Part shown: positions 9,942 through 51,613 of the stretch, one piece after another
Numbering within the stretch: the stretch's first letter is position 1
Layout of the letters: each line of letters opens with the position of its first letter
IMG/VR virus record: IMGVR_UViG_3300017902_000306
Location: 10,083-74,082 of that record
DNA length: 64,000 nucleotides
Reading direction: 5' to 3' (one strand)
Source: a virus
Taxonomy: Duplodnaviria > Caudoviricetes
The notes under the pieces: generated by a model
The model's input: only the letters and a program-made list of their open reading frames with translations
Databases searched by the model: none
What the model was told of the DNA's origin: nothing
Translations under genes and position numbers: made by a program

Positions 9942-10546
9942 GACCCATTTCAATCAACAGTGATTTGACTAGAATGTTGGACGATTACATAAATTGGTTC
10001 AACAAAAAAGATTTTGATTTGCCGATGGATGAAAAGAGGTTCGGCGACAGGGACATGGAGTATTACTGTTCCAAAGAATATCTTGACCATGTAATGTCTG
10101 AATCGAAGAAACACAGAGGCCCTCCAGAGTATGCGAAGGTATGTGACTTTCATTTGACACACAAGACACCACAACAGGCAAGAGAAAAGTCATTAGAATT
10201 TTGTAAGGACTTGGCTGCATATCTTGGCGCCAAGTTTACCGCAGTTCACGTTTACTATCCCGAAGGTGGATATATGTCGTGGCATAACAATTGGGACTGT
10301 CCAGGCTACAATATACTACTATCTCATAGTGATGGTGGTGGATTCTTCAAGTATCTCACTGAAGATGGTTCTATTGAAACAATGAACGATCCTGCCGGAT
10401 GGAACGCAAAGGTTGGATATTACGGTGGCAAAGATGATCCATACTGGCACTGTGCTGGTTCTACTAGTCCTAGACAGACAATCGGATTTGTTATCCCCGA
10501 CAAGGACATGTGGGAAATGATGATAGAGGATATCAGTTATGCTTAG
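9938..10546 (+). CDS. Putative 2OG-Fe(II)/cupin-fold oxygenase
   Basis: YYPEGGYMSWHNN ... YWHCAG ... RQTIGF resembles the double-stranded beta-helix oxygenase pattern. Confidence 0.5.
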   Translation: MRPISINSDLTRMLDDYINWFNKKDFDLPMDEKRFGDRDMEYYCSKEYLDHVMSESKKHRGPPEYAKVCDFHLTHKTPQQAREKSLEFCKDLAAYLGAKFTAVHVYYPEGGYMSWHNNWDCPGYNILLSHSDGGGFFKYLTEDGSIETMNDPAGWNAKVGYYGGKDDPYWHCAGSTSPRQTIGFVIPDKDMWEMMIEDISYA

Positions 10547-36242: not shown

Positions 36243-36271
36243 ATTATAATGATTTTGACAACAGATGTCAA
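36243..36271 (-). promoter_or_regulatory. Antisense-facing sigma70 promoter
   Basis: Minus strand reads TTGACATCTGTTGTCAAAATCATTATAAT (TTGACA-17-TATAAT). Confidence 0.55.
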
Positions 36272-36287
36272 GGGTATTTTTTTATCA

Positions 36288-36316
36288 TTGACATCTGACT
36301 AAGAATACCGTATAAT
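36288..36316 (+). promoter_or_regulatory. sigma70 promoter for gp55
   Basis: TTGACA-17-TATAAT. Confidence 0.85.
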
Positions 36317-36952: not shown

Positions 36953-37183
36953 ATGGAAAATAAAGTAAAAACCCAAAAAACAAAAACTTCTTGGTTAGGT
37001 AGTTTCGGAAAATTTTTTGTAGACGGGGCCAAGTTAAGTGTTGACCCTGACCCCGATGAAGTAAACAGTGAAAATGCCTACAAAACGAGATGGGTTTGGT
37101 ATCATACAATGTTGGGTATTCTCATTTTGACTACCAACATATTGCTAGTCGCTATACTGATAGTCCTAGCAGTGAAACTTTGA
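36953..37183 (+). CDS. Small membrane protein
   Basis: 76 aa with a C-terminal hydrophobic helix. Confidence 0.55.
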   Translation: MENKVKTQKTKTSWLGSFGKFFVDGAKLSVDPDPDEVNSENAYKTRWVWYHTMLGILILTTNILLVAILIVLAVKL

Positions 37184-37215
37184 CCCTTGACACCCGCTTG
37201 GTTTGTGTGTATAAT
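37184..37215 (+). promoter_or_regulatory. sigma70 early/middle promoter
   Basis: CCC-TTGACA-17-TATAAT. Confidence 0.85.
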
Positions 37216-37241
37216 GTAATGAATACTAGGGGGTATATATT

Positions 37242-37781
37242 ATGAACGCATTTGGACTTGACCGCAACTACACCGTAGCTGCAATGTTACACAACGACAA
37301 ACACGTTGTGAAAATGAACATCGAATACTGTCAACTTATGTCTACTGCTCATCGTGTTCTTGATGGTGAAGAATACTATGACAAGACTAAGAACAATCGC
37401 CGTATCAAACGATGGCGGTTGGATGATGTTCATATGGAGAACACACTCTACAAAGCATCTCATATCAATCACCCGACAAACATCTGGGTGCGATCCACTG
37501 TGGGTAATTACCTATGGATGTATGGTCTGTGGGAATCTCTCGCTGAGGAATACACACACCGATACGGCAAGGTTCATGCCTCGTGGGAAAAATTGCACAA
37601 TGAATTGGCGATGCCACCAAAAAACATTCCTGATGGCCCTTTTCAAGAAATACCACAGGCAATGCCAGATGATGTCAAACGTGATGACTTTGTTGAGGCG
37701 TATCAAGAATACTATCGCAAATACAAAGCACACTTCTCTAAGTGGACTAACAGACCCACACCAGAATTTATGTTCGTATGA
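37242..37781 (+). CDS. Pyrimidine-dimer DNA glycosylase-like (DenV/Pyr_excise family) protein
   Basis: HNDKHVVKM..EY.QLMSTAH, H.NHP..IW.R, EY.HRYGK.H, AY..YY...K..F.KW..R..P. Confidence 0.7.
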   Translation: MNAFGLDRNYTVAAMLHNDKHVVKMNIEYCQLMSTAHRVLDGEEYYDKTKNNRRIKRWRLDDVHMENTLYKASHINHPTNIWVRSTVGNYLWMYGLWESLAEEYTHRYGKVHASWEKLHNELAMPPKNIPDGPFQEIPQAMPDDVKRDDFVEAYQEYYRKYKAHFSKWTNRPTPEFMFV

Positions 37782-38890
37782 TTTTAACAAAAGAAGATTC
37801 ATACTACGCTAGCAAAATGGTTGTCGAATACTTCTCAAAGTTTGAGAGGATTGATGATTATTTTCGTGCGAGAAAGATTGAGAGGGTAAAACAATTACCA
37901 CCCCCTCTACTTGGCATGAGCGTAGAAGATGATATGTTTCAAGATTGGGAAACGCCACCAGAAGACTTAGACTTTGAAGTTGTTCAGATGAACAATGAAA
38001 TCTTTGATCAGATGTTGGAAATGACAGCTTCGTTTTCCCCCGATGAGGCGCCAGGAAAATCTCTCAAACTTATTGTGAAAGAGACCAACTCTAACAAAGC
38101 AGTTGGGTTTATCAAGATGGGTTCCCCCCTCATCAACTCTAAACCCAGAAATGAGTATCTTGGTGGCGTTCCCGATCTTGGCATTTTTAATCAACGTGCA
38201 ATCATGGGATTCAACATTGTTCCCGTCCAACCATTCGGTTTCAATTATCTTGGGGGTAAACTGATGGCTGCGATTTGTTGTTCGCATGATGTTCGCAGAA
38301 TGTTGAACAAGAAGTATGACACGGAGTTTTGTTTGTTTGAAACAACATCTCTCTATGGCAACATTAAGGGCGCATCTATGTATGATGGTATGCGCCCGTT
38401 TCTTAGATACAAGGGTGATACCATGTCATCCTTTTTATTGACTATGGGTGAGGATATATACTTTCATTTGAGAGATTGGTTTGAAGAAAGAAACAATGAC
38501 GAACCTCTCATTCACAAAGGCGCATCAAGTAGAAAACTAAAGTATCAGACAAAGATGATACAAATAATCAAGGCGTCACTCAAGGAGCACGATGAGAAGG
38601 GATATAATATGTTTTGTGATGTCATTAGTAAGTCTACTGATGTCACCACAAATAAAAGATTTTATATGTCTGAGTATGGATACACAAATACCAAGGATGT
38701 TTTACTTGGCAAAACGGACAAACTGGAGAAGGCAGAGAATTTTGATAGATTTGAACTACCTGAGATTATCAAGTGGTGGAAAAAACTAGCAACCAAACGC
38801 CACAACAACCTCATGTCGGATGGTAGAATCCGCAAAGAGTTAGAAGTGTGGAATCACGATACAATTGATAAGATAGATATTATAAGATGA
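37778..38890 (+). CDS. DUF4338/DruA-like protein
   Basis: GFIKMGSP...R..YLG, IVPVQPFGFNYLGGKL.A, FETTSLYG...S.YDG; family recalled, not searched. Confidence 0.6.
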   Translation: MILTKEDSYYASKMVVEYFSKFERIDDYFRARKIERVKQLPPPLLGMSVEDDMFQDWETPPEDLDFEVVQMNNEIFDQMLEMTASFSPDEAPGKSLKLIVKETNSNKAVGFIKMGSPLINSKPRNEYLGGVPDLGIFNQRAIMGFNIVPVQPFGFNYLGGKLMAAICCSHDVRRMLNKKYDTEFCLFETTSLYGNIKGASMYDGMRPFLRYKGDTMSSFLLTMGEDIYFHLRDWFEERNNDEPLIHKGASSRKLKYQTKMIQIIKASLKEHDEKGYNMFCDVISKSTDVTTNKRFYMSEYGYTNTKDVLLGKTDKLEKAENFDRFELPEIIKWWKKLATKRHNNLMSDGRIRKELEVWNHDTIDKIDIIR

Positions 38891-39306
38891 AGATTGGATT
38901 TACTTGCGGTTCATTTGATTTGTTACACGCTGGCCATGTGGTCATGTTTGAAGAAGCAAAAGAAAATTGTGACTTCTTGATAGTGGGACTACAGACAGAC
39001 CCCACCTTAGACAGATCAGATAAAAACAAACCCATACAAAGTATCTACGAAAGATACATTCAGTTGTATGGATTGAAGTGGATTGATGAAGTCATACCAT
39101 ATGATAGAGAAACTTGTCTCATGGATATCTTGAACACCAAAAAAATTGATGTCAGATTTGTTGGTGAAGAATACAAAGACAAACAGTTTACGGGGTCACA
39201 CTTGCCCATAGAAATTTACTACACCAGCAGACAACACACCTTTTCCTCTACCGAACTGAGAGATAGAGTAACTAGGGGTGAGATAAAAGAAAAGATTAAA
39301 AGATGA
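38887..39306 (+). CDS. TagD-like cytidylyltransferase
   Basis: GFTCGSFDLLHAGH (HxGH), K.KPIQ...ER, R.HTFSST.LR. Confidence 0.85.
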   Translation: MKIGFTCGSFDLLHAGHVVMFEEAKENCDFLIVGLQTDPTLDRSDKNKPIQSIYERYIQLYGLKWIDEVIPYDRETCLMDILNTKKIDVRFVGEEYKDKQFTGSHLPIEIYYTSRQHTFSSTELRDRVTRGEIKEKIKR

Positions 39307-40298
39307 AGATTACATGTGCTAGATTGCGATCAAACGTAAGATATAATGGCCCACTGGAAACCGTATTGGATAGTTTCTTAGAAAACTATAGATTGTGGAT
39401 GCGTAACAATCCACAACACCAGTATGAGACATACAACATATCCTTCAATCAGTATCGTCCACAGAGAACACCAGAGACAATAGAGTGGGCAGATGCGATT
39501 GTGATACCAAGTGACAGTGAGTTTCGGTATCATGGTGAGTTGCAGATGAACCCAAAAGATTTGGCAAAGTCTCAATCACACATGGAAAAAATTATTCCCT
39601 TCTTCAAGGACAAACATGTAATTGTCCTGAGATCAGACAGGGGTGACAGTGAAGAACTCTACAGGGAACACACTCTACAGAACATACCAATCAAGTCCTA
39701 CACCGAGATTGATGAGATTGATTTCTCTGGTAACATCCACGGTATGAAGTATCATTTCATTCGTGACAAGTTTGACAATGCCATATCTGAGATGTTTGGT
39801 AGGTCATACAATCACGACTTTGGATATTGGGGTAGGATGAAAGATGGGTGTGATCGTGGTAAAGTGTTGAGAAAGATTTACAGAGACCCAGACATCTCTA
39901 CCATTCTGATTGGCGGGTTTCCCTCTGGTATGCAAAGACAATCTGCGTGGATCAAAGATTGGAATCAGTTGTATCCAAAATTGTCTCCGTGTCGATCCAC
40001 ACTTTGTTTCAACTGGAAAGACCCCAAGGCCACTACTTCAAGATATGTAGAGGCACTTGCGATTGGTATGATTCCGTTTGTTTATCAGAACTATGATGAG
40101 AACAATACATATAACATTGATGATTGGCAAAGAGTGCAGGACTTTGATGAATTCAGAGAGAAGGTTGGAGTGCTGAAAACCCCGTCAGTCATGGCAGATA
40201 AACTTTCTGAATACAGGAAGAATTACGAAAAGGTTTTATTATCCAAAGAAGGATACTATGAAATCTTTGCTCACAAAATGAATAAGGTTTTTGCATGA
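39303..40298 (+). CDS. GT-B glycosyltransferase resembling T4 DNA beta-glucosyltransferase
   Basis: YWGRMK, TTSRYVEALA.G..PFV...YD C-terminal pattern; 331 aa; adjacent to gp47. Confidence 0.55.
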   Translation: MKITCARLRSNVRYNGPLETVLDSFLENYRLWMRNNPQHQYETYNISFNQYRPQRTPETIEWADAIVIPSDSEFRYHGELQMNPKDLAKSQSHMEKIIPFFKDKHVIVLRSDRGDSEELYREHTLQNIPIKSYTEIDEIDFSGNIHGMKYHFIRDKFDNAISEMFGRSYNHDFGYWGRMKDGCDRGKVLRKIYRDPDISTILIGGFPSGMQRQSAWIKDWNQLYPKLSPCRSTLCFNWKDPKATTSRYVEALAIGMIPFVYQNYDENNTYNIDDWQRVQDFDEFREKVGVLKTPSVMADKLSEYRKNYEKVLLSKEGYYEIFAHKMNKVFA

Positions 40299-41344
40299 AG
40301 GTTGCTTTAGTTACTGACACTCACTTTGGTGCGAGGTCAGACAGTCTTGCTTTTGACGCTTACTTCAAGAGGTTCTATGATGACTTCTTTTTCCCATCTC
40401 TACAAGCGCAAGGGATAAATACTATTGTTCATTTGGGTGATGTATTCGATAGAAGAAAGTTCATCAACTACAACACACTGAAGTCTTGTAAAGAATACTT
40501 TTTCGGACAAGCACATCGTCTGGGTATGACCATGCACATGATCCCAGGCAATCACGATACTTATTTTAAAAATACTAACGATGTAAACTCTCTGGAATTG
40601 TTGTTGCAAGAATACGACAACATAAAAATTTACCCAGAAGTTTCGGAGCTGGAATTAGATGGAAGAAAAATACTATTTGTTCCGTGGATATGTAGCGATA
40701 ATTATCATGGCACTATGGAGAAAGTTAAGGTCACTGATGCCAAAGTTTGTTTTGGACATTTTGAGTTTACTGGTTTCCAAATGTATAAAGGTGTGCCGAA
40801 TGATCATGGAATGGATCACGATCCCTTTAGGCATTTTGATTTGGTTTGTAGTGGGCATTTCCATCACCGCAGTTCTAGGGACAACGTTACTTATCTTGGT
40901 AACCCTTATGAAATTACTTGGTCTGATTTCCAAGATGATAGAGGATTCAATATCTATGATACGGAAACGAATCAGTTAGACTTCCACAAAAATCCATTCC
41001 GCATGTTCCACAAGTTGTTTTACAACGATGTTGATGGTCAGAGTAAGTTTGATTTGGCTGAGGTTGTTGGTGCTTGTGTCAAACTGATTGTTGTCAAGAA
41101 AGAAAACTTTATGAAGTTTGACAAACTGGTGGATTCCCTGTATACTTGTAACTGTGTAGAACTAAAAATAATTGAAGACTTCTCGGAGTTTGAAGATGAG
41201 GCAGTCGGTGAAGTAGAGTTGCAAGTGGATGACACTATGACTCTGTTGCGAGAATATATAAACAACACGGTTACTGACTTAGATAAAGATAGATTGACAT
41301 CTGTTATGCAGACGTTGTATGTTGAGGCACAACACGAATTATGA
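40295..41344 (+). CDS. gp47: Recombination endonuclease subunit (Mre11/SbcD-like)
   Basis: TDTHFG, HLGDVFDRRK, GNHD, SGHFH, YLGNPYE..W.D. Confidence 0.96.
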   Translation: MKVALVTDTHFGARSDSLAFDAYFKRFYDDFFFPSLQAQGINTIVHLGDVFDRRKFINYNTLKSCKEYFFGQAHRLGMTMHMIPGNHDTYFKNTNDVNSLELLLQEYDNIKIYPEVSELELDGRKILFVPWICSDNYHGTMEKVKVTDAKVCFGHFEFTGFQMYKGVPNDHGMDHDPFRHFDLVCSGHFHHRSSRDNVTYLGNPYEITWSDFQDDRGFNIYDTETNQLDFHKNPFRMFHKLFYNDVDGQSKFDLAEVVGACVKLIVVKKENFMKFDKLVDSLYTCNCVELKIIEDFSEFEDEAVGEVELQVDDTMTLLREYINNTVTDLDKDRLTSVMQTLYVEAQHEL

Positions 41345-43011
41345 TAATGTTTCAAAAACTGCGGTGGAAGAATTTTCTATCCACCGGCAACTCTTTTACA
41401 GAGATAGATTTTATGAGAAACCCCACGACATTGATCGTGGGGGAAAACGGCAGTGGTAAGTCTACTTGTCTTGATGCGCTGTGTTTCGGATTGTTCAATA
41501 AACCATTTCGTAGTATCAATAAACCACAACTAGTAAACTCAATCAACGGCAAACGACTGATGGTTGAGATTGAATTTTCTGTGGGTAAAAAACACTACAA
41601 GGTTGTGCGTGGTATGAAACCACATGTGTTTGAAATCTACTGCAATGATCAGTTCATTGATCAGGATGCTGCTGCTCGTGACACACAGAAGTATCTGGAA
41701 GACAGTATCTTGAAACTAAACTACAAGTCATTCACTCAGATCGTGATATTGGGTTCTGCTTCTTTTACTCCCTTCATGCAGTTGCCTACTACGCACAGAC
41801 GAGAGATCATTGAGGACTTATTGGATATCCAAATCTTCACGAACATGAATCTTCTTTTGAAGGAGAAGATCGGTGTGTTGAAGGATGAGATAAGTTCTAT
41901 TGAAGGTGCCATTGAAGTGGCAAAACAAAAGACAAAAGTTCAAAAAGAATATATAGATACGTTGGAAAGTGATAAAGCCACCCGACTCAACAACTTGGAG
42001 GAACAAATCAATGCGCTCGAGCAGGAAATTGCAACAAACCAAGAGGAGACAAATACAAGGGAGGCGGAGAAACTGGCTCTTGGCAACCCAAAAGAGGAAC
42101 AAAGAAACCTTGAGGGACACCGAAAACAATTCCAATCAGATATTGCTCAAGCCCAAAGAGAGTTAGATTTTTATGAAAATAACGAGGACTGTCCAACCTG
42201 TAAGCAGGGCATACCACACGAACACAAAAGACAGGCGCAAGAATCCAAATCCAGAGAGATTCAAGACCTTACTAAAGCAACGAAAGGCCTTGACAAAAGA
42301 TACGAAGAAGTAGTAGGGACACTAGAAAAGTTTGTTGATCTGTCTAATCAGATATCAGAGTTGCAAACTGAGATGTTGTCTCAAGAAAGATATAAGAATA
42401 CTTTACAGAATGATCTCAACTCTCTAAAAGATAACAGGGCAAACATAGATGAGGAGTCAAAGAAACTCAAGTCTATGGCAAAAGATGTTCTTGATCAGAA
42501 TGCCAACAAGTCTGCAAAGAATGAAGAACAACACTACAACATTGCTGCATCGCATTTGTTGAAAGACACTGGTATCAAGACAAGAATCATCAAACAGTAT
42601 TTGCCTGCCATCAATACGTTGGTCAATAAATACTTGCAGTCAATGGACTTCTTTGTTCACTTTGAGTTGGATGAGAAGTTCAATGAAACAATCAAGTCTC
42701 GACACAGAGACAGATTTAGTTACGCCTCATTCAGTGAGGGTGAGAAACAACGCATCGACTTGGCATTGTTGTTCACATGGAGAACGATTGCCAAGATGAA
42801 GAACAGTGCAAGCACAAACCTCTTGATACTTGATGAGGTGTTTGATAGTTCACTTGATAACAATGGAACTGACTATGTGATGCAGTTGTTGAATACTATC
42901 GGAGATCAAACAAATGTCTTTGTGATTAGTCACAAGGGTGATCAGTTGTTTGATAAGTTTAGAAGTCAGATTAAGTTTGAAAAGAAACAGAATTATTCGG
43001 TGATGACATGA
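41341..43011 (+). CDS. gp46: Recombination endonuclease ATPase subunit (Rad50/SbcC-like)
   Basis: GENGSGKST, CPTC hook, FSEGEK signature, LDEVFD. Confidence 0.96.
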   Translation: MIMFQKLRWKNFLSTGNSFTEIDFMRNPTTLIVGENGSGKSTCLDALCFGLFNKPFRSINKPQLVNSINGKRLMVEIEFSVGKKHYKVVRGMKPHVFEIYCNDQFIDQDAAARDTQKYLEDSILKLNYKSFTQIVILGSASFTPFMQLPTTHRREIIEDLLDIQIFTNMNLLLKEKIGVLKDEISSIEGAIEVAKQKTKVQKEYIDTLESDKATRLNNLEEQINALEQEIATNQEETNTREAEKLALGNPKEEQRNLEGHRKQFQSDIAQAQRELDFYENNEDCPTCKQGIPHEHKRQAQESKSREIQDLTKATKGLDKRYEEVVGTLEKFVDLSNQISELQTEMLSQERYKNTLQNDLNSLKDNRANIDEESKKLKSMAKDVLDQNANKSAKNEEQHYNIAASHLLKDTGIKTRIIKQYLPAINTLVNKYLQSMDFFVHFELDEKFNETIKSRHRDRFSYASFSEGEKQRIDLALLFTWRTIAKMKNSASTNLLILDEVFDSSLDNNGTDYVMQLLNTIGDQTNVFVISHKGDQLFDKFRSQIKFEKKQNYSVMT

Positions 43012-43520
43012 TGGAATTACTACCACTGAACCACCCTATGTTGAAGGTTCCACCTACTGAGTTTACTGCGTGGGACGAGGCAGAGGATATTGGTGAGATG
43101 ATATTTACAAGACAACAGGCAATTGGTGGAGTAGGACTCTCTGCCAATCAAGTCGGATTGAACTATAGAATGTTCACGATGGGTATAAAGAAAGACAAGT
43201 GGATCATGTTCAATCCAGAACTGGTGTCTGTTAGTGAAGAACAAGTGAAGATGGAAGAAGGATGTCTCAGCGCCCCAGGCATTATGTTGAAAGTGTGGCG
43301 TCCTGAGAAATGCACCATCTCATATCAGAACGCAGATCAAGAAATTGTCATGGAAGAATTTGATGGTCTGTGGGCTAGAGTTGCCTTGCATGAGTATGAT
43401 CATATGTTGGGGCAAAACTTCTTGATGCGAGTCAGCAAACTACAGTTGGACAGGGCAATCAAGAAGGTGAAAAAACAACAAAGAAAAATTAAAAAAATAA
43501 AAGAGGAGCAAGTTGTATAA
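43008..43520 (+). CDS. def: Peptide deformylase
   Basis: GVGLSANQVG, EGCLS, HEYDH. Confidence 0.93.
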   Translation: MMELLPLNHPMLKVPPTEFTAWDEAEDIGEMIFTRQQAIGGVGLSANQVGLNYRMFTMGIKKDKWIMFNPELVSVSEEQVKMEEGCLSAPGIMLKVWRPEKCTISYQNADQEIVMEEFDGLWARVALHEYDHMLGQNFLMRVSKLQLDRAIKKVKKQQRKIKKIKEEQVV

Positions 43521-50238: not shown

Positions 50239-50862
50239 ATGAATGGTGTGATTGAAGTGGGGCAAAAAGTCCCAATGGATGTCGTGTGGAATACACGAGT
50301 CAAATGCCCTGAGATGGTAAGTGCTGGAGTAGAAAACCCATACAAGTGGGAATCAGTAACTTCATCTGATATCTTTGCAGGCAAAAGGGTAATTGTTTTT
50401 GCTCTGCCTGGAGCCTTTACTCCGACTTGTTCCTCTAAACAACTACCCGAATTTGAAAACAACTATCAGATGTTCAAGCGAGCGGGTGTCGATGAGGTTT
50501 ATTGTCTATCAGTGAACGACAGTTTCGTAATGAACATGTGGTTCCGATACCAACAGATAAATGGAGTCAAACCCATCCCCGATGGTTCTGGTTTGTTTAC
50601 TGCTGAAATGGGTATGATGGTAGACAAAGATAACTTATCATTTGGTTCTCGCTCTTGGCGATACTCTATGCTAGTCAATGATGGTGTAGTAGAGAAGGCA
50701 TTTGTCGAAGATGGTTTCGGTGATAACATTGGTGATGATCCTTTTGAGGTATCTGATGCGTTGACAATGTTCAACTATGTTACCACTGATAGTCCTGTTG
50801 GCCGTCAACTGACCTTGAACCTTGAAGAACGTTTGAATTCCAAGGAACAGATTGGATCATAA
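50239..50862 (+). CDS. Peroxiredoxin (Prx5/Redoxin type)
   Basis: LPGAFTPTCS, YCLSVNDSFVM..W, GSRSWRYSM.V.DG. Confidence 0.9.
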   Translation: MNGVIEVGQKVPMDVVWNTRVKCPEMVSAGVENPYKWESVTSSDIFAGKRVIVFALPGAFTPTCSSKQLPEFENNYQMFKRAGVDEVYCLSVNDSFVMNMWFRYQQINGVKPIPDGSGLFTAEMGMMVDKDNLSFGSRSWRYSMLVNDGVVEKAFVEDGFGDNIGDDPFEVSDALTMFNYVTTDSPVGRQLTLNLEERLNSKEQIGS

Positions 50863-51613
50863 ATTGGCAAAAAGAATTGTTATGGTGTCGGGGGGTTTCG
50901 ATCCCCTACACGGTGGTCACATCAACCTACTAGAAAGTGCTAAAAAACTTGGTGATGTCCTAGTAGTCGGTCTCAACAGTGATGATTGGTTGTTCCGCAA
51001 AAAGGGAAAACCTTTCATGGACTTCTGGCAAAGACTCGACATCATGGCAAATCTAAAAATGGTTGATCACGTTGTCCCATTCGATGACGATGATGATACC
51101 GCAACACAATTCATTCTTGATTGCAAAAAAAATTACGGCAAAGATTGCATTTACATTTTTGCCAATGGGGGAGATCGGAGGTGTTCTAATATTCCAGAAC
51201 GTGTTGATGGTGTGATACAACAAACTGGAGTTGGGGGAGACAATAAAGCAAACTCCAGTTCTCACATCTGCCGAACAAAAAGAGATTGGGGATACTTTGA
51301 CGAACTCCTCAAGTATCCTGATGCGAAAGTAAAACTTCTTAACGTAGAACCAAATGACGGAATATCATATCAGAGACATTTTGAAAGAGGTGAGTTCTGG
51401 TTTGTCCTTGAGGGCAAGGCACTAGTCAAACATGCAATAGGTCACGAGTCGAACTATGAAAATCACATCTTGACAAAACATGATTACTTTAGTATAATGC
51501 CTTATCACTGGCATCAAGTTACAAACATTGGTGATGAACCTTTGAAAATTTTAGAGATACAATATGGTAGTTATCTTGAAGAAGATGACATTGAACGTGA
51601 GGAGATTCTATGA
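50852..51613 (+). CDS. Cytidylyltransferase fused to a mannose-6-P-isomerase-type cupin
   Basis: SGGFDPLHGGH, FANGGDR, then SYQRH..R.E.WFV..G...HQ..N...LEIQYG.Y.EEDDI.R. Confidence 0.85.
   Translation: MDHKLAKRIVMVSGGFDPLHGGHINLLESAKKLGDVLVVGLNSDDWLFRKKGKPFMDFWQRLDIMANLKMVDHVVPFDDDDDTATQFILDCKKNYGKDCIYIFANGGDRRCSNIPERVDGVIQQTGVGGDNKANSSSHICRTKRDWGYFDELLKYPDAKVKLLNVEPNDGISYQRHFERGEFWFVLEGKALVKHAIGHESNYENHILTKHDYFSIMPYHWHQVTNIGDEPLKILEIQYGSYLEEDDIEREEIL

Follow-up and report, generated by a model that had tools for sequence, protein, structure and literature searches.

A putative DNA hypermodification cassette in a marine T4-like myophage couples a DruA-family GNAT protein to a glycosyltransferase resembling T4 BGT and AGT

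The two DNA glucosyltransferases of bacteriophage T4, BGT (CAZy GT63; 1c3j/1j39) and AGT (1y6f), have a compact GT-B fold, and AGT is the product of an early gene, a-gt, that lies directly before gp47. To our knowledge, all characterised phage DNA glycosylations begin with 5-hydroxymethyl or 5-hydroxy pyrimidines. The window analysed here, a stretch of 64,000 nucleotides (positions 10,083 to 74,082 of IMG/VR record IMGVR_UViG_3300017902_000306), carries at the a-gt position a cassette in which a BGT/AGT-like glycosyltransferase gene is coupled to genes for a DruA-family protein with a predicted GNAT fold and for a small nucleotidyltransferase. It is proposed, with a probability of roughly 0.55, that this cassette is a DNA hypermodification module whose core is formed by a Mom-like GNAT and a BGT-like glycosyltransferase, that it does not start from a hydroxymethyl-pyrimidine, and that it is accompanied here by an optional donor-making enzyme. 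The source is an uncultured marine T4-like myophage, represented by a 74-kb record that is ~45% complete. Its closest cultured relative is Pelagibacter phage HTVC008M, and a near-identity DNA search of the phage collection gave no match.

Other described systems resemble parts of the cassette. Mom of phage Mu (PF25680; 8bv8), a GNAT-fold enzyme with an extra insert, moves glycine from Gly-tRNAGly onto the N6 of adenine in double-stranded DNA, and the group then rearranges to carbamoylmethyl (Silva et al. 2026, PMC13219725). DUF4338, the domain of DruA (PF14236) from type I Druantia, has been described as a GNAT domain by the Aravind lab (PMC10853773). In phages, a CTP_transf enzyme and a betaGT-like GT-B, together with an HAD/APH enzyme, put heptose on 5-hydroxymethylcytosine in DNA (Pyle et al., bioRxiv 10.1101/2023.12.21.572611).

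The cassette and its downstream neighbours in the window are the following (lengths in amino acids, aa):

37187-37215, + strand: sigma-70 (early) promoter of the cassette, TTGACA-17-TATAAT, 12/12 consensus
37242-37781, + strand: open reading frame 3 (ORF3), first gene of the operon, 179 aa, phrog_624 protein, weakly DenV/Pyr_excise-like
37778-38890, + strand: DruA-family (DUF4338) protein with a predicted GNAT fold, 370 aa (PF14236, phrog_19197, model)
38887-39306, + strand: small HxGH nucleotidyltransferase of the cytidylyl/adenylyltransferase family, 139 aa (PF01467, phrog_7878)
39303-40298, + strand: predicted T4 BGT/AGT-like GT-B glycosyltransferase, 331 aa (model, structure search)
40295-41344, + strand: gp47 (SbcD-like), translationally coupled downstream neighbour
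41341-43011, + strand: gp46 (SbcC-like), translationally coupled downstream neighbour
43008-43520, + strand: peptide deformylase (def), translationally coupled downstream neighbour

ATGA start/stop overlaps occur at 37778, 38887, 39303, 40295, 41341 and 43008, that is, at all six junctions from ORF3 through def, and a GGGGG ribosome site precedes the ATG of ORF3 at 37242. The promoter at 37187-37215 is the only perfect one on the + strand from gp55 to def, and an 11/12 site is found inside gp47 at 41118. Upstream of the cassette lie uvsW and then gp55 (phrog_234). T4 has the order 55 ... mobB, a-gt, 47.1, 47, 46 in NC_000866, and the 331-aa gene, which directly precedes gp47, therefore occupies the a-gt position. 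A preliminary description of this DNA, whose interpretation is partly supported overall, had reported a promoter followed by ATGA-joined genes running into gp47-gp46-def at this T4 position, and the coordinates and the T4 gene order agree with it.

The 331-aa protein has no match in Pfam (E <= 0.01), PHROG or NCBIfam, and chance matches only among PDB sequences. In marine metagenomes its homologues fall into more than 800 clusters when grouped at 90% identity; clustering at 50% leaves 146 representatives. An AlphaFold model built from 41 diverse members reached a predicted local distance difference test score (pLDDT) of 94.7 and a predicted template modelling score of 0.92. When this model was compared with the PDB, ranks 1-10 of Foldseek were all BGT or AGT (1j39, E 3e-8; 1y8z, E 1e-7). 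VIA-align, run on 48,161 PDB chains, gave BGT a Z of 19.6 (root-mean-square deviation 3.6 A over 285 aa) and AGT a Z of 16.6; the highest cellular GT-B reached 15.3, and cellular GT4 enzymes 14-15. These two independent structure aligners thus agree in placing BGT and AGT at ranks 1-2, as the preliminary description had anticipated in likening 39303-40298 to a DNA glucosyltransferase. Profile comparison of the family by hhalign aligned the C-domain alone with T4 BGT (E 1.2e-4, probability 55%), and 46 columns with T4 AGT (E 0.004). The same tool places K180, R185, R247 and E250 on the uridine diphosphate (UDP)-binding R191, R195, R269 and E272 of BGT, so that the R/K...R and R-x-x-E nucleotide-binding residues are kept; R185 and E250 do not vary among the 41 members, R247 is conserved in at least 90% of them, and K180 is absent from the listed conserved columns. 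A conserved SDRxD motif (D112, D115) follows strand 4 of the N-domain (105-110), just as Asp100 of BGT follows a strand, and may correspond in position to this catalytic residue. With BGT and AGT on top in the structure searches and the nucleotide-binding residues aligned, the modelled protein appears to be a BGT/AGT-like GT-B enzyme by its fold and nucleotide-binding site, and is not a member by sequence model. It differs from the T4 enzymes in its low identity (~15%), in its lack of a Pfam match, in not being basic, and in the coupling of its gene to a GNAT and an optional nucleotidyltransferase.

Neighbours were mapped in 88 loci around homologues of the 331-aa protein, 80 from viral contigs and eight from metagenomes, and linkage was counted for the 27 distinct homologues with at least 2.5 kb of flank on each side. 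A DruA-like gene lies within 4 kb of the transferase gene in 25 of these 27, often overlapping it directly, and the pair recurs in at least four genome contexts, including the gp55-gp47 slot and sites near rnh and near uvsX. The earlier suggestion that the DruA-like protein is a partner is thus upheld, although the three genes need not occur together: 12 of the 27 have the nucleotidyltransferase, which is missing, for instance, from locus L014. A second glycosyltransferase, TAGT (PF20691; phrog_842 'beta-glucosyl-HMC-alpha-glucosyltransferase', HMC being hydroxymethylcytosine), occurs in 8/27, and in no case are TAGT and the nucleotidyltransferase found together. Mom itself is found among the neighbours. 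Locus L056, a 36.6-kb phage that is 97% complete, has no DruA-like gene anywhere, and in it a true Mom (L056:8881-9915, + strand; 344 aa, PF25680 134.6 bits, phrog_1384) directly follows the transferase gene. In L050-L052 Mom (173 bits) forms one cluster with the DruA-like gene, the transferase and TAGT, and in a relative of the window type (G002) Mom is 11 kb away. Other neighbours of the transferase include an N6_N4 DNA methylase and a GmrSD_N/NsnA-like protein, and L096:5651-8077 encodes a distant family member fused to ParB_N and an N6_N4 methylase, with an Asp_Arg_Hydrox 2-oxoglutarate (2OG) oxygenase after it.

Some further features of these loci were noted. In L056, Mom is followed by an unknown 742-aa protein and then by an MptE-like/DUF115 protein with a Maf-type glycosyltransferase-like domain. 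The distant transferase members (L096:5651-8077, L097:2405-4236, L099:743-2466 and L098:992-3508) lie in another kind of cluster, three being paired with a PALP-like protein (a pyridoxal phosphate enzyme) and one with an asparagine-synthase-like amidotransferase. A recurrent family of 400-457 aa, here called u403, has a GIY-YIG-like N-terminus and, by alignment, a ParB-like 'DGNHT' motif, and gave no match in Pfam, PHROG or PADLOC. Its genes lie between or beside the DruA-like and transferase genes, mostly in loci that lack the nucleotidyltransferase, and its product could be a homing endonuclease or a modification-sensing nuclease:

L050:6790-8001: u403 family gene
L049:8504-9781: u403 family gene
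L085:3662-4933: u403 family gene
L084:9009-10223: u403 family gene
L046:2076-3449: u403 family gene
L090:5008-6285: u403 family gene

The constant partner of the transferase, the 370-aa protein, scores 33.9 bits against PF14236 (cut-off 27) over residues 67-192 of the GNAT core. PF14236 is its only Pfam match, the Mom family PF25680 giving none; PADLOC DruA1 matches weakly and partially (E 8.3e-6). PDB searches gave chance matches with the single sequence and no match with the family profile. A model from 38 sequences (pLDDT 89.1) shows a predicted GNAT core spanning roughly residues 60-310, in which three helices are inserted ahead of the last strand, with additional helices at both termini. 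In VIA-align against 48,161 PDB representatives the first match of this model was Mom of phage Mu (8bv8_B; Z 10.0, root-mean-square deviation 3.6, 167 aa), and in Foldseek Mom held rank 20. On the model, then, the DruA-like protein has a GNAT fold, and it is proposed, by analogy, to be a Mom-like transferase acting on a DNA base. In common with Mom it has an extra insert in the fold, and true Mom genes adjoin the same transferase family in other phages; it differs in its added N- and C-terminal helical parts and in being acidic to neutral. The phage gene stands in a replication region rather than a defence island, with gp55, the nucleotidyltransferase, the glycosyltransferase, gp47 and gp46 as neighbours. 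The preliminary description had introduced DUF4338 as a Druantia component, a label that does not hold here, where the domain forms a GNAT to which Mom is nominally the closest structure and no DruABCDE system accompanies it.

Two side observations concern the distribution of this fold. In BFVD, the predicted structures of viral proteins that come nearest to the DruA-like model are those of uncharacterised giant-virus proteins (Faunusvirus, E 1e-15; Yasminevirus; Dasosvirus), by which the DUF4338-type fold would extend beyond phages and bacteria. A second, distant DruA-family paralogue (L095, at G008:C1:28783-29589; 32% identity, open frame of 429 aa) lies ~10 kb from the first DruA-like gene, with a tRNA-Thr nearby.

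The co-substrate of Mom, Gly-tRNAGly, has a counterpart in the genomes of relatives. A tRNA-Gly with the anticodon TCC or ACC lies 0-0.7 kb from the DruA-like or the transferase gene in L053, L068, L070, L073, L076 and the L074 group, and 2 kb upstream in L055. No more than 15 nt separate it from the mapped ends of the DruA-like gene in L053, L068 and L070, in L076 it stands directly before the transferase, and in HTVC008M (L001) a tRNA-Gly(ACC) is located between the two genes:

L053:2534-2607: tRNA-Gly gene
L068:7129-7203: tRNA-Gly gene
L070:1294-1367: tRNA-Gly gene
L076:2777-2850: tRNA-Gly gene
L074:5789-5861: tRNA-Gly gene
HTVC008M L001:12593-12666: tRNA-Gly gene

The stems of these tRNAs vary, while G1-C2-G3, U73 and C35-C36, which we take to be identity elements of the bacterial glycyl-tRNA synthetase GlyRS, are invariant, and the CCA end is encoded. 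An ACC anticodon is uncommon among bacteria. All other tRNA genes in these phages, for Thr, Arg and Asn, are at a distance of at least 5 kb. By analogy, this adjacency agrees with the DruA-like enzyme drawing on Gly-tRNAGly as Mom does, and is also compatible with a GNAT whose target is the tRNA itself.

The chemistry open to the transferase depends on its acceptor. PF00303, the ThyA family that includes the deoxycytidine/deoxyuridine monophosphate (dCMP/dUMP) hydroxymethylases and 5-hydroxy-dCMP synthase, is absent from the 74-kb fragment to which the window belongs and from five relatives, of which three are 91-100% complete, one of these carrying the same cassette. Without a dCMP hydroxymethylase these relatives have no 5-hydroxymethylcytosine acceptor of the T4 kind. 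C5 DNA methylases (PF00145) are likewise absent from the five relatives, and a Tet_JBP search of the relatives found nothing, but its control was silent, so that TET-like enzymes are not excluded. Since no known source of hydroxymethyl-pyrimidine is found, the leading candidate for making the acceptor is the GNAT, the constant partner of the transferase.

The proposed model is as follows. The cassette would be expressed early from its sigma-70 promoter. The DruA-family GNAT would, like Mom, transfer an acyl or aminoacyl group in activated form, in all likelihood glycine carried by Gly-tRNAGly, to an exocyclic amine of a base in double-stranded DNA. The BGT/AGT-type enzyme would then attach a sugar, or a group resembling one, to this appendage or to nearby DNA, with a nucleotide-activated compound as donor. 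In the window phage the nucleotidyltransferase would raise the supply of this donor, which might be ADP-heptose-like or CDP-alcohol-like (adenosine and cytidine diphosphate, respectively); in other phages TAGT, a member of the T6-type beta-glucosyl-HMC alpha-glucosyltransferase family, would take its place and extend the glycan. The likely benefit would be the shielding of phage DNA from host restriction and related defences. This model is favoured because BGT and AGT are the top fold matches and their UDP-binding residues align; because the gene holds the a-gt position; because the DruA-like gene accompanies it so regularly and in several contexts; because Mom replaces the DruA-like gene in one phage and clusters with the pair in others; because neighbours and fusions (TAGT, N6_N4 methylase, ParB_N) are DNA-modification enzymes; because the DruA-like model is a GNAT with Mom as nominal best match and a helical insert between the last strands; because tRNA-Gly adjoins the pair in relatives and Mom uses Gly-tRNAGly; and because a CTP_transf enzyme and a betaGT-like GT-B have been found to put heptose on DNA (bioRxiv 10.1101/2023.12.21.572611). 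A more specific version, in which a glycyl-tRNA-using DruA-family GNAT, served in some phages by a private tRNA-Gly, aminoacylates a DNA base and the BGT-like enzyme glycosylates the appendage with a donor boosted by the nucleotidyltransferase, is offered tentatively and is rather doubtful in its full detail.

The nature of the donor bears on the third gene. The 139-aa nucleotidyltransferase matches PF01467 (CTP_transf_like) with 60.7 bits, bears HxGH and ISTT-like motifs, and, having the ~130-aa size typical of TagD and of domain II of RfaE (HldE), aligns over its full length to both and to ECT. Its best PDB sequence matches include human ECT (3elb, E 1.3e-19) and TagD (1coz, E 8e-14). The score against TIGR02199 (rfaE_dom_II) is 70.7 bits for a cut-off of 181.5, and against TIGR01518 (TagD) 61.0 for 165.4; the protein passes superfamily models only (PF01467, TIGR00125). 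With scores so far below the equivalog cut-offs, neither substrate nor nucleotide can be assigned. phrog_7878 is annotated as a heptose enzyme. The preliminary description had called it a TagD-type, CDP-polyol enzyme, an assignment that is not established, RfaE domain II scoring slightly higher. A CDP-polyol donor, possible on sequence grounds, is not favoured, and ADP-heptose fits at least as well. The broader claim of DNA hypermodification with a CDP-activated donor keeps its first half, given the DNA-modification look of the locus and the lack of a hydroxymethyl-pyrimidine route in relatives, whereas the CDP donor is not established. The transferases of L014 and L015 are 95% identical to each other and each ~84% identical to that of the window; they occupy the same slot, but only L015 has the nucleotidyltransferase. 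A donor must therefore also come from the host, and the idea that the nucleotidyltransferase supplies an exotic, phage-only donor was rejected.

The window holds a second nucleotidyltransferase, whose CTP_transf_like domain is 39% identical to that of the cassette over 87 aa:

50852-51613, + strand: CTP_transf_like domain fused to a mannose-6-phosphate-isomerase-type cupin, 253 aa

This gene lies 3' of a peroxiredoxin gene and 5' of DUF4385 and the gp44 clamp loader, and may act in sugar-nucleotide metabolism tied to the cassette or to a phage glycosyltransferase island.

Several observations weigh against the proposed module. The isoelectric points of the GNAT and the transferase are near neutral (6.4 and 7.7), as compared with 10.0 for Mom and 9.05 for BGT, and the GT-B fold is generic. 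The lead of Mom over ordinary GNATs (Z 9.2-9.4) is less than one Z unit, a tie by the aligner's own rule, and hhalign detects no sequence similarity between the DruA-like family and Mu Mom (probability 0.1%). A tRNA/Rfam scan of the window found nothing in or beside the cassette, and a tRNA scan of loci of the gp55-gp47 type found no tRNA-Gly beside it. Loci with both the DruA-like gene and Mom mean that the two are not simply interchangeable. In HTVC008M the DruA-like and transferase genes are 15 kb apart, and in many cyanophages a DruA-like gene is present while the transferase is missing; among the cyanophage records of the collection searched, none yielded a BGT-like gene. The dependence is one-way, the DruA-like gene occurring also alone, as in three cultured cyanomyophages, where it sits between the clamp-loader gene gp44 and gp62 in the replisome operon:

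L110:3001-4143: DruA-like gene of S-SSM7
L111:3001-4152: DruA-like gene of S-PRM1
L112:3001-4059: DruA-like gene of S-SM2

We know of no acceptor hydroxyl on the canonical bases and of no precedent for glycosylation of a Mom-type appendage. Finally, 65% of phage glycosyltransferase contigs have no base-modifying partner, and the authors who counted them warn that most such contigs need not target DNA (Pyle et al., bioRxiv 10.1101/2023.12.21.572611).

These observations can be arranged into other explanations. It could be argued that the two core proteins are functionally unrelated, the GNAT targeting charged tRNA-Gly, as a TacT-type toxin-like enzyme, or a replisome or host protein for host take-over, and that their linkage reflects a shared early-gene hot spot. 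The solitary cyanophage genes, the distance in HTVC008M and the lack of sequence similarity to Mom speak for it, as does the fact that GNAT toxins acetylate Gly-tRNAGly (PMC13219725). Such independence is nevertheless unlikely, given an adjacency that persists in several genome contexts and in which the stop codon of one gene often overlaps the start of the next, the true Mom standing in the DruA-like place in L056, and the tRNA-Gly that directly precedes the transferase itself in L076.

It could also be that the transferase and the nucleotidyltransferase glycosylate a target other than DNA, be it a virion or host protein, a lipid or an envelope precursor, in a TagF- or heptosyltransferase-like reaction. 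The generic fold, the Z values of cellular GT4 enzymes, the non-basic character of the transferase, the prevalence of contigs without a base-modifying partner (Pyle et al., bioRxiv 10.1101/2023.12.21.572611) and the presence in the window of the nucleotidyltransferase-cupin fusion and of a glycosyltransferase island, the latter according to the preliminary description, would agree with this. The best structure matches, however, are two DNA glucosyltransferases and not envelope enzymes, the gene stands at the a-gt position, amid recombination genes and behind an early promoter, and has Mom, TAGT, DNA methylases and ParB-type domains recurring in its neighbourhood, which together make a non-DNA target improbable.

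A hidden pyrimidine route is the least probable of these three explanations. An unrecognised hydroxylase, such as a 2OG-Fe(II) oxygenase, would make a 5-hydroxymethyl or 5-hydroxy pyrimidine to be glycosylated by the BGT-like enzyme with a donor made by the nucleotidyltransferase, and the GNAT would decorate the sugar or be a bystander. Genes for 2OG-Fe(II) oxygenases do lie near the transferase in L007 and L089, the Asp_Arg_Hydrox enzyme follows the fused form in L096, the silent Tet_JBP control leaves room for TET-like enzymes, and contig 53 of subclass III (Pyle et al. 2023) provides a precedent. Contig 53 and the cassette share a cytidylyltransferase-like enzyme adjoining a betaGT-like GT-B in a phage, and the nucleotidyltransferase of the cassette scores best on heptose-1-phosphate adenylyltransferase models. 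In contrast to contig 53, the cassette has no HAD/APH kinase-phosphatase, methyltransferase or 5mYOX/TET (subject to the silent TET control), and the GNAT is its constant partner. Neither a ThyA homologue nor a C5-methylase occurs in the five relatives, of which three have a completeness of at least 91%, cyanophages without the transferase commonly have PF13759 oxygenases too, and the linkage with GNAT, Mom and tRNA-Gly would be left unexplained. A Druantia system or decoy was rejected, as no other Druantia genes, DruB-E, are present and the match is confined to the GNAT core.

The hypermodification module, as preferred here, probably does not include ORF3 in its core. This protein matches phrog_624 (E 2.7e-47) and scores 12.9 bits against PF03013 (Pyr_excise, DenV; cut-off 23), a 54%-identical orthologue reaching 22.7 bits; in its Atlas neighbour clusters PF03013 occurs on 10-29% of members. 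PDB searches gave chance matches with the single sequence and nothing with the family profile. ORF3 is found mainly in the gp55-gp47 slot, with few other loci; it shares the promoter but is probably a DNA-repair-type gene in its own right. Its earlier designation as glycosylase-like had only these sub-threshold Pyr_excise scores behind it and is not supported as it stands, and the gene is only loosely linked to the pair. The annotated 'denV' of S-SM2 is not similar to ORF3.

Two further features lie upstream of the cassette promoter:

36243-36316: two perfect TTGACA-17-TATAAT promoters, back to back, one per strand, upstream of gp55
36953-37183, + strand: 76-aa ORF with a hydrophobic C-terminal stretch and no family match, between gp55 and the cassette promoter

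By its position upstream of this promoter, the 76-aa ORF groups with gp55 and not with the cassette.

The literature searched holds no description of a pairing between a DruA-like GNAT and a BGT-like glycosyltransferase. A predicted BGT-type enzyme is widespread in marine phages without known routes to 5-hydroxymethyl or 5-hydroxy pyrimidines, and travels with a putatively Mom-like GNAT and, in relatives, with tRNA-Gly. If the specific version of the model were true, its product, a glyco-aminoacyl purine, would be the first case of a sugar modification of DNA not begun from a hydroxylated pyrimidine, and the DruA/DUF4338 family of Druantia would gain its first biochemical activity. HTVC008M, a cultured phage, has the DruA-like gene, a transferase of 40% identity and the tRNA-Gly(ACC), so that the idea is directly testable. 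Should the pair act on DNA, it would represent a chemically new class of hypermodification, present in myophages that are among the most abundant in the ocean, with consequences for how phages evade restriction, for bias in the sequencing and amplification of marine viromes and for new DNA-labelling enzymes, and it would give a hint at the role of DruA in Druantia.

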